Source of the DNA: Candidatus Jordarchaeia archaeon
GTDB taxonomy: Archaea; Asgardarchaeota; Jordiarchaeia; Jordiarchaeales; Jordiarchaeaceae
Assembly: GCA_029856435.1 (NCBI GenBank)
Contig: JAHQXB010000010.1
Span: 1 to 21,945, forward strand
Length of the DNA stretch: 21,945 bases
Direction: 5' to 3'
Position 1 is the stretch's first letter; the number at the start of each line of letters is the position of its first letter. The notes beneath the pieces are model-generated. The model did no database searches. It was not told the DNA's origin and saw nothing but the letters and a program-made list of their open reading frames with translations. Position numbers and translations under genes: made by a program. Below, piece by piece: positions 1,781-13,980 of this stretch.

Positions 1781-2319
1781 TCCTTTTTCTCACTCAATTT
1801 TTTTTGAAAATTGTATACTTTTTCTCCCTTTTTTGAAAGTTTGAATAACCCGGAGCTGGTTATCTTAGAAATTATTTCCTCTTCGTTCATGTGGTGGTCG
1901 CTTAAGGATAGTATTCCGCCCGGTTTCAGTACCCTGTATAACTCTTTCAACACACTGTTTGGATCACTTAATGCATGAAAGGTGTCATATAGTAGAACCA
2001 CATCGATGCTCTCGCTTGGTAAACCGGTTTTGCAGTCTGAAGTGATAGTTTCAACATTTGTCAATCCTTTTTTTGAAGAGATTTTCTGGACTGCTTGGGC
2101 GGCTAGTGGATTCATATCCAGGGCATAAATTTTTCCAGATTTGCCCACTAACTCAGCTGTGGGAAGTATGTAACTTCCGGGGCCACATCCATAATCAAGC
2201 ACATGGTCTCCCAGTTTTATACCCACCTCTTTTAGAATATTCCTGCGGGGAGAAAAGAAGTCACGCAGTTTGAAGCTGAATGTCATCATTTTAAAGTGCA
2301 GCTTATTTGAATCCATCAA
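1777..2319 (-). CDS. Class I SAM-dependent methyltransferase
   Basis: VLDYGCGPG, YALD, ELYRVLKPGG. ATGA overlap with the upstream AbrB-like gene. Confidence 0.92.
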   Translation of the reverse strand: MMDSNKLHFKMMTFSFKLRDFFSPRRNILKEVGIKLGDHVLDYGCGPGSYILPTAELVGKSGKIYALDMNPLAAQAVQKISSKKGLTNVETITSDCKTGLPSESIDVVLLYDTFHALSDPNSVLKELYRVLKPGGILSLSDHHMNEEEIISKITSSGLFKLSKKGEKVYNFQKKLSEKKE

Positions 2320-2600
2320 GATTTACTCCTTTTTTTGTCATCCTTTTCTTTCTTTTCTTTAGGTAGTTCGAAGGGCTCTAGTGGTGCTTCTTCTGGGGCG
2401 GCAAGTATTTTCATTGCGAATCCTTTGAGCCCCTCAACTTTGGCTATGGCGATTCCCTTATTTAGATCCCCCATTACTATGAGGGTGTCTCCGGGATTGA
2501 TTTTGAACATTTCGCGAGCTTCTTTGGGTATCACTATTTGTCCTCGTTCGCCCACTTTTACGGTTCCGAAAATGAACTTATCTTTACCTATCTTCGCCAC
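2316..2600 (-). CDS. AbrB/MazE/SpoVT-family DNA-binding protein
   Basis: GTVKVGERGQIVIPKEAREMFKINPGDTL is a swapped-hairpin signature. GTG start. First gene of a three-gene overlapping operon. Confidence 0.92.
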   Translation of the reverse strand: MAKIGKDKFIFGTVKVGERGQIVIPKEAREMFKINPGDTLIVMGDLNKGIAIAKVEGLKGFAMKILAAPEEAPLEPFELPKEKKEKDDKKRSKS

Positions 2601-2654: not shown

Positions 2655-2975
2655 TATTTTAAATCTTTCCGAATGGTCAATTAAATTTAGTTTTGTTTTA
2701 TCCCCCACAAATCAAGCTTTCACCATTCTCCAATTTTGCACACAAAATAATTAAAAATACTATAAATCCTACTTTCCGCCACTCATGAATTTTTGATATT
2801 TTTTTTCTCTTTCCCAATTTATGCTAATGTCTCTTGCTGAGATTGAGAGGCTCCCAGAAAATTATCCGGTAAAGGTCTGACATTCTTCGTATAGACCTAC
2901 AAATACTACCAAAAATAAAAAAATAAACCAAGGATGCGGAGAGTGGAATAAATTACAATTTTGTTTACTCATTCT

Positions 2976-3175
2976 GACCCAGTTTTAACCTTGCGTAACT
3001 TTGGGTCTTCCTCCCTCAAGTTCCATGGTGAGGCTTTCTCCCGGGGAACGGTTGAAGCAGGCACATCTCTCTTGCTTTCGGTGGGATGTCCCCAATTGTG
3101 GCTCTGCCCTCTTTGAGCTTTTTCGAACTTCAACCCGGCATTCCGAGCTGGGCCGGAATCGGCTGCACGACACAT
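2976..3175 (-). ncRNA. Candidate structured RNA; 3' half resembles a TnpB omega-RNA/right end (orphan locus A)
   Basis: GC-rich island in AT-rich intergenic DNA. Stems ATTCCG/CGGAAT (3140-3159), GGTTGAAG/CTTCAACC (3128-3135 with 3050-3057) and GACCCA/TGGGTC (2976-3007). Motifs are collinear with the IS607 right end at 11315-11385. Confidence 0.5.
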
Positions 3176-3795
3176 GTATATGTATGGTTGTTTTTGAAGA
3201 ATGATAGATTTAATGGTTTTTCTTTAACGTTAACTGTTGGAGTCAATTTTAACAAACTTTACTCTAAATATAGAGTTTCTCATTAATTTTTTCCTAAACC
3301 TATCCTTGACCGGGGTTATTTAAGGCTTCTTTCCCCAAAAAAGGCGGAAAAAACCATACTTTCTGGAAGCGAAAAGGAAAAAAATTAAATGGAAAGTCTA
3401 TAGTTTTAACACCCCTCAAAAGTGGCAAAAAGGGCGATTTTGTCAAAATTAAAAGAAAAAGGCGAGAGAAATAAACGGAAACAGAATAAATTTAACATTA
3501 CCAAAAATTTGGCAGAATTGTTGTGTGACCGGCAATCACTAGTTTTCTTTAACAGGAAGTACATCGCTTTGGGGGTTAAACATTATTTTCTTGAAGACAG
3601 TTTGAAGCCAGATTATTTCCTTGCAGTTTTTTCGAGAATTTTTTAACTGGTAAAAGGTTTCCCTCCCTCAAGAGTTTTGTGCTTCTAATTTTCATTAAAT
3701 TTTTTTATAACAATTTGCAATATATTTATATATTAAATTACATCTATCTATCTTTAAGGGAAGTTTATGCATGTAAATTCTGGGAGAAATGTGGA

Positions 3796-4278
3796 ATGTA
3801 TGGGGTAGCGAGGAAACCAGAAGTGGATAGAACTTTTCAAGACTTAAAACCAGTTAAACTGTTTGAGAGACCTTGCAGACGCTGCGAAAAGCTAGTAGGA
3901 GTATCCATACTATATGATGTGAATGTCTTTGGGAGAGTCCCGTTAAACTATCATTACACCTGTGAAGAGGGAAGAGTTTTATCCGCCACTTCAAAGAGGG
4001 ATGGTGGATGTCCGATTAACTCTTTCCAGCCCTCAAAAGGCGGAGAAATTGAATTAACACCCGAATCTCTGACTAAAAATGGTTTCACAAAATTGAATTA
4101 CGAAAAGTACATCGCAAAGTTGGATCCAAATCACCCCCAAGCTAAGCGCTACGGCGAAATAATCATCCACCCAGGAGAAGAACTTCTCAAGTTCATTTCC
4201 CAAATCTATGATATATGGATAAAGAAAGGAGAAAACAACGGTGAAAATAACACGCACTTTGCACCAGTCTCAAAATAA
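3796..4278 (+). CDS. Hypothetical protein with a CxxC motif
   Basis: The ATG at 3796 is preferred, because the ORF-track extension to 3679 runs through AT-rich promoter-like DNA. Contains CRRC plus two more Cys. No family recognised. Confidence 0.65.
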   Translation: MYGVARKPEVDRTFQDLKPVKLFERPCRRCEKLVGVSILYDVNVFGRVPLNYHYTCEEGRVLSATSKRDGGCPINSFQPSKGGEIELTPESLTKNGFTKLNYEKYIAKLDPNHPQAKRYGEIIIHPGEELLKFISQIYDIWIKKGENNGENNTHFAPVSK

Positions 4279-10569: not shown

Positions 10570-11300
10570 GTAGTGAAAGAGTATTGTTTTCCGTTGCAGA
10601 TACGACCTCTAAAGACGAAAAAAGGCTAAAAAGACAAAACCAATTTCGTCCAAGCCTATGTGCAGAATACACTTACAAGGAATTTGGAGCTGGATAGAAT
10701 ACAACCAATCAAAAAAGTAGTGACGGGAACGAGGGGGCGGGTACATGCTTTTTTGAATTTTGACTACGTTTGAACCATTTCTACATATTTTCAATACGCG
10801 TTCAATCCTAGATCCAAAATACAGAAAGCTAGTAAATTGATTAGAAAAAGATACAATAATAAACTTGAAAAATAGGGGGTATTAGCATTCCAAACTGGAC
10901 AGTAAACCAAAACGAGGCAAAAAGGTATGCCAATATGCTGCTCAGTGTGAAAGCAACGACAATTAACTTTTCCTAGTTTAACCCTTGAAATATAAAGGAT
11001 TTGATTTCTTCACGTACCTTCCCAAATTTTTCGAATCCCTTAACATCTTTAAAAGGACGAGTAAAAGGGGCTGCCTACACGACAATCACTACAAGGGGTA
11101 AAGAAATAAAGAGGAGCGCCACTATAAACACCGTTGTACCGGTAAAAACTGGAATCACCAGTCGCTACCCCATTTCATCCCAAAAGAAGTGTATTCAAAC
11201 AATCCATAACCTGTGAAAAAACTGAATGAGTAACTTAAAATAAAAAGTAAAAGTGCTGGCAACAAATAACGGTACTGAAGAGAGTACACCGTTGTGGGAT
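10570..11300 (-). pseudogene. Decayed multi-pass membrane protein gene
   Basis: Manual translation gives consecutive hydrophobic fragments broken by stops and frameshifts: VPLFVASTFTFYFKLLIQFF; LVIPVFTGTTVFIVALLFISLPLVVIVV*; EKLIVVAFTLSSILAYLFASFWFTVQFGMLI. It begins right after the IS607 right end. Boundaries are approximate. Confidence 0.5.
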
Positions 11301-11312
11301 TCCTAGATTTTC

Positions 11313-11440
11313 ATCCCTTCCCTCTCACCTCTATTATTAGAGGCTCATGGAAGGCTTCCGCCGCCAGCGGTAAAGGGCGGCACATGGGGGTTTGGCGGCT
11401 GTGTTCCATGCGGCTGCTGGGTGCCTGTCCGCTTATAAGC
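11313..11440 (-). ncRNA. Putative TnpB omega-RNA (right-end RNA) of the IS607 element
   Basis: Overlaps the tnpB 3' end. Hairpins GCCGCC/GGCGGC and CCTCTA-ATAA-TAGAGG, the second enclosed by CCTTCC/GGAAGG. The location matches established TnpB omega-RNA organisation. Confidence 0.65.
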
Positions 11441-12447
11441 CGCATCTCTTACATTTGAAGACATACACATTCGGCTTATTCAACTCGCCACACATCGGGT
11501 ATGTCTTGGGGGTGTTTTTGGAATTAATGAACTTGGGGCTGAAACCATTTTCCACAGACATATGAAATGTGGGATTTAATCTTTCTAAACGGTATGTCGT
11601 GAAGCCTCCTATTCATTTTCCTGCCGTATCGTATTTTCTTCCTAATGTTAGTGAGCTTCTCCATTGCGGGCTTAACGTTCTCCTCGGCGATTATTTGAGT
11701 TAATAATCCTTGAAGCTTTGTGGAGTATATCACTTACCCGCCTCTTCTCCCTCCCAGAATATTTCGCCAGTAGCTCAGCCTCCGTCTTCCCCGACTTTTT
11801 GCTCTGTATGTTCCACCTCTTCTTGAAGTACCTGGTGTATTTCGCTTCGCTTACGTCTATCTTGGCGAATCTAACCTTATCAGGCTTAACTACAGCTAGG
11901 TCCACGCTCCTCTCGTTGACATCTATGCCAAACACGCCTTCAGGCTTTCTCTTCAACCACCTTTTTGAAGGTCGCGTGCAGGAAGAGATTGTCACCTCTT
12001 CTCACAAGCCTTGAGCCCTTAACCTGCCGCTCCGCGAACTTCTTGGAATATTCATGAACCTCAAAGGGCAACACTATATGCTCCTTATGTGTAGCCAGCT
12101 TCAGGCTTCCCCAGCTAAACTAGGAATGGTGCGTATCATCTAGAAGAATGGGGTTTAGGTTTTCAGCTTTTGGCGGGCTAACCTTCTTCCTCTTCCTCTT
12201 CCAAGTCTCCTATAAGGCTTGAATATCGCTAGAGCCTGCGTCATAGCCGTATAGATGTAATGAGATGGGCGCTTCACTCTTAATTCCTTGTAAACAGTTT
12301 CGTGAAGTTTCCTCCTAGAGGTTACGCCTAGGCGTGTGGCCTTATCAAAGATATGCCCTGGCCATTTTGGAGTAGGCCTTAAAAAAGCTCATCAGGCGCT
12401 ATTGCTTGTTCCTCTTTTAGGTTGAGGTTTAAATCTACGTGTCTCAT
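11337..12447 (-). pseudogene. tnpB: TnpB RNA-guided nuclease pseudogene
   Basis: Fragments recovered across frames: RuvC-I GVFGIDVN, RuvC-II region AMEKLTNIR, zinc finger remnant YPMCG...CKRCG, RuvC-III ADRHPAAAWN. I count about six frameshifts and two in-frame stops. Confidence 0.92.
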
Positions 12448-13076
12448 TCAGCAATAAGCTGTTTGACACCTTCAACCACCTTTTCGTACTTATGGCTTCT
12501 CGTCCCGTAGAGCTTTCCTGCAAGGCTTGAAACTAAGGCTATTAGATCCTCTACAAGCTCCTGATGAGCGTCTTTAGGTTCATCGCCGTTGACAACCTCT
12601 ATTCTAACCCCACGAGAGGCGAAATAACGCTCTAAATATTTGAAGCCGAACCTTGTAAGCCTATCCTTAAATCTGACTACAATCACTCCAATCTCCCGTG
12701 TCTCAACCATGTCGAAGAGCTTGTTCAGAGATCTTCTATTCTCGTTAGGCCCGCTGGCGACGTCCTCTAGAACCGAGACGACCTCATAACCTTTTGATTT
12801 GGCGTATTCTAATAAACTCTCTTTCTGCCTCTCCAAGTCGCCTTTTTGCTTTTGATCGTAAGAAGAAACTCTAGCATATATTACGGTTTTCCTGCCTACA
12901 TCTATCTCCTTTATTCCGAGAATGCGCTTTATTTCGCTTTCAGGTATCCTCCTCCTACCTCCAACCGTCCTAACGCACCTTATCTTCCCCTCTTTATCCC
13001 AAATCTGGAGGCACCTAACGCTAACTCCAAGAATTTCGCTGGCCTCTTTCATCGTATAATGTTTCTCTAAGCTCAT
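12444..13076 (-). CDS. tnpA: IS607-family transposase TnpA (MerR-type HTH plus serine recombinase)
   Basis: HTH YTMKEASEILGVSVRCLQIWDKEGKI, catalytic IYARVSS, EDVASG and DRLTRFG. Uninterrupted 210 aa. Confidence 0.96.
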   Translation of the reverse strand: MSLEKHYTMKEASEILGVSVRCLQIWDKEGKIRCVRTVGGRRRIPESEIKRILGIKEIDVGRKTVIYARVSSYDQKQKGDLERQKESLLEYAKSKGYEVVSVLEDVASGPNENRRSLNKLFDMVETREIGVIVVRFKDRLTRFGFKYLERYFASRGVRIEVVNGDEPKDAHQELVEDLIALVSSLAGKLYGTRSHKYEKVVEGVKQLIAE

Positions 13077-13350
13077 TGAGATAAACTTTTATAAACGTCT
13101 AATACAAACCTATTTATTTGGAAACAGTAAAAGAATTATTACCTAAAAACCAAAAGAATTTTTGGGCGTGCTCAGCTGGATAAAAAAAGAGAAAAACCCT
13201 TTTAGGAGGATACTGGGGATTCCTTTTCCAAAAGCATGTTTGTCTTCCTGAGGATTTAAATAGTATTTGAGTAAAACATTTTTCTATCCTCTAGTTATTC
13301 TTTCAATTGTTATGTTTTTATAATTAGTTAAAATCCATATCCACACAAAC

Positions 13351-13834: not shown

Positions 13835-13980
13835 TTTTCGGCTTTCATCATCCCTTGGTGTGCCCTTTTCGGCTTTTTTGCCCTCGTAGAATAACTCAAA
13901 ATGGGCTTCAATCCGGGGAACGCAGGACACGAAACAAACGCATACCCAAAAGGCGACGCCCAATTAACTGTGCCTATTTT
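13835..13980 (-). other. Omega-RNA-like / tnpB right-end remnant without tnpB (orphan locus D)
   Basis: Shares AATTGGG, CGTTCCCCGG-N4-AAGCC and GAGGG with locus A, in the same order. Shares AGGCAC and AAGGGATGA with the IS607 right end. Confidence 0.45.

Follow-up and report, generated by a model that had tools for sequence, protein, structure and literature searches.

Is an omega-RNA-like sequence that stands in an intergenic region, with no tnpB beside it, an RNA gene in its own right or part of a mobile element? The question is posed by locus A, a GC-rich island (0.525) amid AT-rich intergenic DNA of a Candidatus Jordarchaeia archaeon. The window, that is, the whole 21,945-nt stretch of DNA analyzed, is contig C177 of a fragmented 3.54-Mb MAG (181 contigs, 97.8% complete). 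A preliminary description of the window had portrayed locus A, placed at 2976-3175, as orphan, omega-RNA-like, and fused to an extra structured 5' domain; it might be an independently transcribed guide RNA acting in trans with a TnpB or a nuclease-dead derivative encoded elsewhere. The locus lies in a 1.08-kb intergenic gap between divergent genes, one encoding a MazE/AbrB-type antitoxin-like protein (2316-2600, minus strand) and the other an ORF with no Pfam match (3679-4278, plus strand). As originally stated, locus A contains no tnpB ORF, and no TnpB-like ORF is located beside it. ARAGORN detected no tRNA or tmRNA at the locus; Rfam searches at gathering thresholds gave no match in the window, the IS607 TnpB-linked RAGATH-18 included, and a permissive Rfam search produced just chance-level matches in 2700-3500.

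BLAST and nhmmer profile searches of its own genome revealed that locus A is not singular but one of ~56 loci of a dispersed ~320-nt element, a mobile IS607 deletion derivative (see below), 25 of which are full-length. The copies have common sharp ends, 5' GGGGTGTTAAAACTGCTTCTATTTAG... and 3' ...CTGGGTCAGAACGG, beyond which the flanks are unique, and several contigs terminate inside them. None of the family copies contains a TnpA- or TnpB-type ORF, and the two most divergent family matches (C165:17693-17802 and C55:26767-26941) have no tnpB upstream. Pairwise identity among copies averages 85.6% (range 69-98%), with locus A being the most diverged (83.9% identity to the consensus), and the tree of the copies is star-like, with no resolution of shared ancestry among the MITE2-bearing copies. 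The sole near-identical pair, C129:9445-9775 and C129:15055-15383 (98% identical, inverted, 5.3 kb apart), may have arisen by a recent duplication nearby or belong to a composite element.

The limits of locus A are window positions 3404 and 2969 on the minus strand, and the span initially assigned to it was too short. The element opens with the left-end tip GGGGTGTTAAAAC (3392..3404, minus), equivalent to positions 1-13 of the family model; the same tip also opens a full-length IS607-type element of L088, at 817. The tip is severed from the remainder by a nested insertion, an unrelated 123-nt TIR MITE (3269..3391, no strand assigned), which is not family DNA and is missing at the same position in the other 24 full-length family copies. 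The remaining left end (3200..3268, minus) includes a purine-rich stretch and, as reported earlier, the TATA-like ATTAAAT (3214-3208), a conserved BRE/TATA-like box upstream of the GC-rich part that may function as a promoter. It is followed on the same strand by a decayed, internally deleted tnpB 3' end (3082..3199) bearing CPECG, CPKCG, and RNLL zinc-finger remnants, by the omega-RNA 3' scaffold module (2969..3081), and, outside the element, by a unique 3' flank (2949..2968), which would serve as guide in any functional transcript of the locus, a role suggested by the published mechanism of IS607 TnpB.

The check with covariance models (CMs) that the preliminary description had proposed was applied to the 3' module, in both directions. 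R2, a CM built solely from eight tnpB-adjacent right ends of related archaea with the family excluded, matched 2969-3081 (minus) with 66.6 bits (E = 7e-19) and the right end of the IS607 copy in the window (11289-11400, minus) with 27.8 bits (E = 5e-7); genome-wide, it recovered 57 such modules in the source genome. Conversely, R1, a CM of the family 3' module, matched right ends beside intact tnpB with E values of 1e-14 to 1e-10. Given the R2 match, the 3' ~113 nt of locus A are a genuine IS607-type omega-RNA scaffold, the homology to TnpB right ends originally proposed is upheld, and chance resemblance is excluded. The motifs on which the proposal was based are also in place on the minus strand, namely ATGTGCC (3066-3060), CCGTT (3051-3047), GAAAGCCTCACCATG (3038-3024), and GAGGGAGG (3017-3010) in locus A, and ATGTGCC (11385-11379), CCGCT (11370-11366), and GAAGCCTTCCATG (11358-11346) in the IS607 right end. 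When locus A and the IS607 right end were simply aligned as a pair with MAFFT, the two were misaligned, and their homology was clear just with the family profile and the CMs. Another part of the window, 13835-13980 ("locus D"), considered as a second tnpB-less omega-like copy, was rejected, since neither R1 nor R2 matched it with filters off and E values up to 10. The RNA module belongs to a class of archaeal IS607-type omega RNAs outside Rfam coverage.

In locus A, the scaffold comprises the helices P1 (3062-3058 with 3043-3039), P2 (3033-3028 with 3015-3010), P3 (3007-3002 with 2981-2976), and P3b (2999-2996 with 2987-2984) and ends with the tail AGAATGA (2975-2969), all on the minus strand. 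P3 is the hairpin GACCCA/TGGGTC of the preliminary description; it is present as described but is the last conserved stem of the scaffold and not a terminator. Likewise, the stretch following GGAGGAAG, which had been taken for the guide, is this conserved terminal hairpin, and the variable flank starts past ...AGAACGG, from window position 2968 downward. The 8-bp stem connecting the GC-rich part to the scaffold exists insofar as GGTTGAAG (3135-3128) exactly complements CTTCAACC (3057-3050), but the pairing needs a 4-nt insertion that is seen in 5 of the 25 full-length copies.

Among the eight tnpB-adjacent right ends, P1 (after ATGTG), P2 (CCNNCC...GGNNGG), and the terminal P3 display strong covariation. 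In an alignment (A6) that had been fitted to the structure of the family model, 13 of the 21 pairs show changes on both sides and 92.9% of the cells are paired, compared with 74.7% in shuffles (0 of 500 reaching the observed value), whereas sliding the 3' partner by 1-3 columns leaves at most 3 pairs with both-side changes. The compensatory changes anticipated in homologues do not occur within the family: no compensatory pairs were found, helix-breaking substitutions are uncompensated, pairing (88.6%) equals that of shuffles (89.0%), and 11% of helix cells are broken, a pattern of neutral decay from a structured ancestor. RNAalifold likewise yielded a weak consensus for the 25 copies (-15 kcal/mol, with a covariation term of -0.16). 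Because covariation within the family is nil, the family copies cannot prove the structure, and the covariation had to come from the tnpB-adjacent relatives. In locus A, 18 of the 21 pairs are standard and 3 are broken; the full-length copies in the source genome (G000) have a median of 4 broken pairs of 21, and copies with 0-1 broken pairs include C118, C40, and C123a.

The origin of the family can be traced through full-length elements. Intact IS607-type elements, each consisting of a serine-recombinase tnpA and a tnpB of ~390-420 aa, are found in same-order genomes (L031, L037, and L032), and more such elements are present in Bathyarchaeia, Korarchaeia, Baldrarchaeia, Jordarchaeia, Archaeoglobi, and Nitrososphaeria. 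Directly after tnpB, their right ends match family positions ~180-323 and have the same finish, ...GTCAGAACGG. Family model positions 1-53 match the left ends of full-length elements in L088 (817-868), L103, and L085. The element of L088 (Ca. Bathyarchaeota QZM_A2_bin_24) combines the left end at 817-868 with tnpA (888-1511; Resolvase and HTH), a tnpB with a TNB domain, and a right end, matched by family model positions 178-323, reaching 2661 and finishing ...GGCTCAGAACGG. Because both of its ends match full-length elements, the family is a deletion derivative that has lost tnpA and most of tnpB. Intermediate forms persist in the same-genus genome G003, in which tnpB C-termini (...CPECG...RCPKCGMEEDRDVIAVRNLLLKY..QRDVPASSVP) precede right ends and in a 754-nt element the family left end and the right end are joined by TnpB sequence of ~200 aa that contains frameshifts.

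These intermediates also account for the GC-rich part, which the preliminary description had regarded as an extra 5' domain standing in place of tnpB and which is instead decayed DNA coding for the tnpB 3' zinc finger. It is collinear with G003 tnpB DNA apart from two internal deletions: in the family, GCCCGGAATGCGG corresponds to CPECG of tnpB, AGCCCAA...GGGCAGGGCCACAACTG to CPKCG..EEDRDII, and GGAACATCCTCC to RNLLL. For locus A, the assignment of 3082..3199 is based on the nhmmer alignment to the G003 tnpB remnants and on a collinear pairwise alignment to L015 2280-2634. In intact elements, the equivalent of 3082..3199 makes up the 5' half of the DNA that codes for the omega RNA, and the GC-rich part is therefore not an additional domain.

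The window itself harbors an IS607 copy (11288-13127, minus strand) with an intact tnpA (13076..12444; Resolvase and MerR-type HTH) and a tnpB frameshifted into at least 4 frames (~12400-11430), and mini-derivatives of this type, consisting of a left end and ~230 nt of right end, were identified at C41:5116-5400 and C99:9192-9468. Two independent IS607 lineages, represented by the locus A family and by C41/C99, have thus given rise to gene-less derivatives that keep the whole ~220-nt omega-RNA region. The source genome encodes two intact IS607 TnpAs (window 13076..12444 and C53:13703-14290), and the left ends of their elements differ from that of the family.

The site of locus A is empty in a sister species, in which contig C198 (G001:C198) joins the equivalents of window positions 2965 and 3406, with flanks 87-91% identical, and the locus A element was consequently once mobile. 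By comparison with this empty site, 440 nt (2966-3405), approximately two fifths of the 1.08-kb gap, are inserted MITE DNA. Contigs of a hot-spring relative (runs X3 and X4) skip 2966-3437; these runs are labelled metatranscriptomic, were flagged as probably DNA, and were taken as contigs. The high summed depth over 2948-3109 in X3 and X4 stems from repeat copies and carries no information on transcription. According to the published rules for IS607, the core dinucleotide is GG, the TGGG target doubles as the TAM, and the scaffold ends with ...CGG (10.1101/2023.11.20.567912). The left flanks of the family copies are T-rich followed by GGGG, the right ends read AGAACGG, and the consensus junctions are ...GG/TGTTAAAAC and ...AGAACGG/ (slash, boundary), which fits these rules as far as the sequences go. 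The window copy ends with AGAATGA rather than AGAACGG and has therefore lost both the GG core and the CGG end of the scaffold. The recurrence of the same deletion junctions in ~56 loci indicates that the deleted form itself multiplied.

Conservation is uneven along the family model. The most conserved part is the BRE/TATA-like segment (model 61-95; mean column identity of 0.944 across 25 copies), and this segment and the terminal hairpin (0.92) somewhat exceed the 0.82-0.90 observed elsewhere, which could hint at residual constraint. The 22-nt 3' flanks of the 49 copies with an intact right end are all different, save for the pair C113/C136, whose identical flanks probably reflect one locus assembled twice. 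Apart from that pair, searches of these flanks against the genome returned chance-level matches of 16-20 nt alone, and for the 3' flank of locus A, a search of the kind suggested in the preliminary description found no credible second match in the source genome. An intact cognate TnpB was not found in six genus genomes, one of them closed. In G000, there was no match to the cognate TnpB C-terminus, and the best full-length tblastn matches were at most 30% identical or corresponded to the frameshifted tnpB of the window; in five further genus genomes, identity of at least 50% to the cognate TnpB was confined to G003 pseudogenes. The source MAG of 181 contigs breaks at repeats, and a full-length parent or cognate tnpB could therefore be unassembled.

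We consider it highly probable that locus A is a copy of an IS607-derived MITE and that its family is now a decaying fossil lacking an intact cognate TnpB. An IS607 insertion sequence with a serine-recombinase tnpA and tnpB would have lost tnpA and most of tnpB, leaving a MITE that retains ~100 nt of left end with the promoter-like box, ~115 nt of decayed tnpB zinc-finger DNA, and the ~113-nt right-end module, the last two parts together being where intact elements encode the TnpB omega RNA. From published IS607 biology, we infer that a TnpA serine recombinase acting in trans would have moved the copies, by way of a circular intermediate and with GG cores, into T-rich/GGG sites. The omega-RNA module may have been kept because transcripts reading into the flank would, together with TnpB supplied in trans, guide cutting of the emptied donor site and thereby favor retention of the element. 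Locus A itself, with its nested MITE, three broken pairs, and lost CGG, most likely neither moves nor works as a guide.

The main competitor of this explanation holds that the copies remain active guide-RNA genes: transcription would start at the left-end promoter, and the RNAs would be taken up in trans by a TnpB whose gene is unassembled, carried by a plasmid or virus, or resident but divergent, with the role of shielding the MITEs from loss or cutting matching invaders. In its favor are the conserved promoter-like box 25-30 nt upstream of the GC-rich part, the retention of the entire ~220-nt omega-RNA region in two independent IS607 subfamilies, the nearly unbroken pairing of C118, C40, and C123a, the accepted idea that omega-RNA-encoding PATEs act in trans (PMC10055086), and the ability of an omega RNA supplied in trans to work for an IS607 TnpB. 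We nevertheless regard it as unlikely: the six genus genomes, including the closed one, contain no intact TnpB more than ~36% identical to the cognate type, the helices lack covariation within the family and are broken in 11% of their cells, copies have been interrupted by secondary insertions (inside P1 in nine cases), the genome offers no second target for the 3' flanks, and locus A has no CGG terminus. The evidence speaks against a working guide RNA for the locus A copy and makes a weak case for one in the family, and action of locus A in trans with TnpB or a dead derivative is disfavored. A more far-reaching variant, which we also judge improbable, is that the family is a guide-RNA-only hyperparasite that is still primed, its ~50 promoter and omega-RNA cassettes forming a standing guide set. 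If this were true, the guides would be loaded by any compatible IS607 TnpB that came in on a plasmid or virus or with an IS invading anew, and the MITEs would gain homing and retention without encoding a protein; selection on the RNA would then explain why the promoter box and the terminal hairpin are conserved above average.

Two other explanations have hardly any probability. Domestication as a host-serving guide RNA for a nuclease-dead, TldR-like TnpB repressor has published precedents (PMC10705468) and would suit the position of locus A in a lengthy gap that separates two divergent genes; it is extremely improbable in view of the 56 mobile copies with random flanks, the empty site in the sister species, guides that match nothing elsewhere in the genome, and the lack of an adjacent or syntenic TnpB-like gene. 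The degenerate tnpB codons upstream of the scaffold would agree with the decay in situ of a single dead IS607 copy, and the preliminary description had accepted that degenerate tnpB coding sequence at this position would make the locus a decayed IS end. Such sequence was indeed found, but the decayed form was itself amplified as a MITE; with the same deletion junctions present in ~56 loci, we give this explanation almost no credence, and none more to a fortuitous likeness, against which the E value of the CM match stands.

Viewed as an IS607-derived MITE copy, locus A is not a new RNA gene but an element of a known sort, and PATE-like elements with omega RNAs have already been described. The family resembles IS607-family insertion sequences (e.g., CboIStron/IS607; Zedaveinyte et al., 10.1101/2023.11.20.567912) in that its ends are homologous to the tnpA_S-tnpB elements of L088, L037, and L031, both consensus junctions have a GG that may be the core dinucleotide, the T-rich, GGG-containing left flank recalls the TGGG target/TAM of the literature, the boundary of the element coincides with the ...CGG end of the scaffold, and the omega-RNA region and the 3' end of tnpB overlap. 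Unlike such insertion sequences, the family has no tnpA, tnpB, or group I intron, is only ~320 nt long, and is archaeal, and its scaffold gives no match to Rfam families, including the IS607-linked RAGATH-18. In common with the PATE mini-elements of the IS200/IS605 group (Meers et al., PMC10055086), it is protein-free, has two ends, keeps a guide-RNA scaffold, and presumably depends on TnpA and TnpB in trans; according to the published view, mini-elements that encode no protein frequently retain omega RNAs as a means of exploiting TnpB supplied in trans (PMC10055086). However, PATEs derive from IS200/IS605, with a Y1 transposase and single-stranded DNA hairpin ends, whereas the family descends from IS607, which uses a serine recombinase and a double-stranded DNA circle; further differences are the high copy number (~56) and the absence of a detectable cognate TnpB in the genus. 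With TldR-associated guide RNAs (PMC10705468), the family shares an omega-RNA-like scaffold outside an active transposon, but it has no linked TnpB-like gene, is neither single-copy nor syntenic, and has flanks without a second target.

What is new is the occurrence in archaea and with an IS607 parent, the number of copies (~56), and the finding of no cognate nuclease in the genus; no new mechanism is revealed by the locus A family. The orphan omega-RNA-like loci in the source genome are copies of one IS607-derived MITE family and not independent RNA genes, and the family is an archaeal, serine-recombinase (IS607) counterpart of the protein-free IS200/IS605 mini-elements that keep omega RNAs. 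The loss of genes with retention of the guide-RNA region in two IS607 lineages fits the notion of the guide RNA as a selectable, modular part of the transposon. In addition, the aligned right ends provide a covariation-backed structure (P1, P2, terminal hairpin, and A[C/G]AACGG) for a widespread clade of archaeal IS607 TnpBs, and the MITE insertions could be used as strain markers.

Window positions 2786-2953 belong to a different dispersed repeat of ~170-190 nt, with a few copies in the source genome (72-79% identity) and a larger number in G001, G003, and G004 of the same genus; at this site, it is present in G001 and in the hot-spring relative and absent in G003. The 123-nt MITE nested in locus A has the TIRs TATAGAGTTTCTCATTAATTTTTTCC... 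and ...GGAAAAAAATTAAATGGAAAGTCTATA and a very high summed contig depth in run X1, and with 64 full-length genome copies at ~93.5% identity, it is younger than the locus A family. Further family copies bear other insertions. Another element, 155 nt long and bounded by perfect inverted repeats of 14 nt (GGCGATAGATTCGC), is present in the genome in 26 copies, 9 of which reside inside P1 of family copies (C138:38025-38180, C22, C126, C84, C45, C136, C132 with two, and C150), at the same position in the palindrome CCCCGGGG and in both orientations. The family copies that carry it come from scattered parts of the tree, a distribution suggestive of a strong target-site preference of the 155-nt element.
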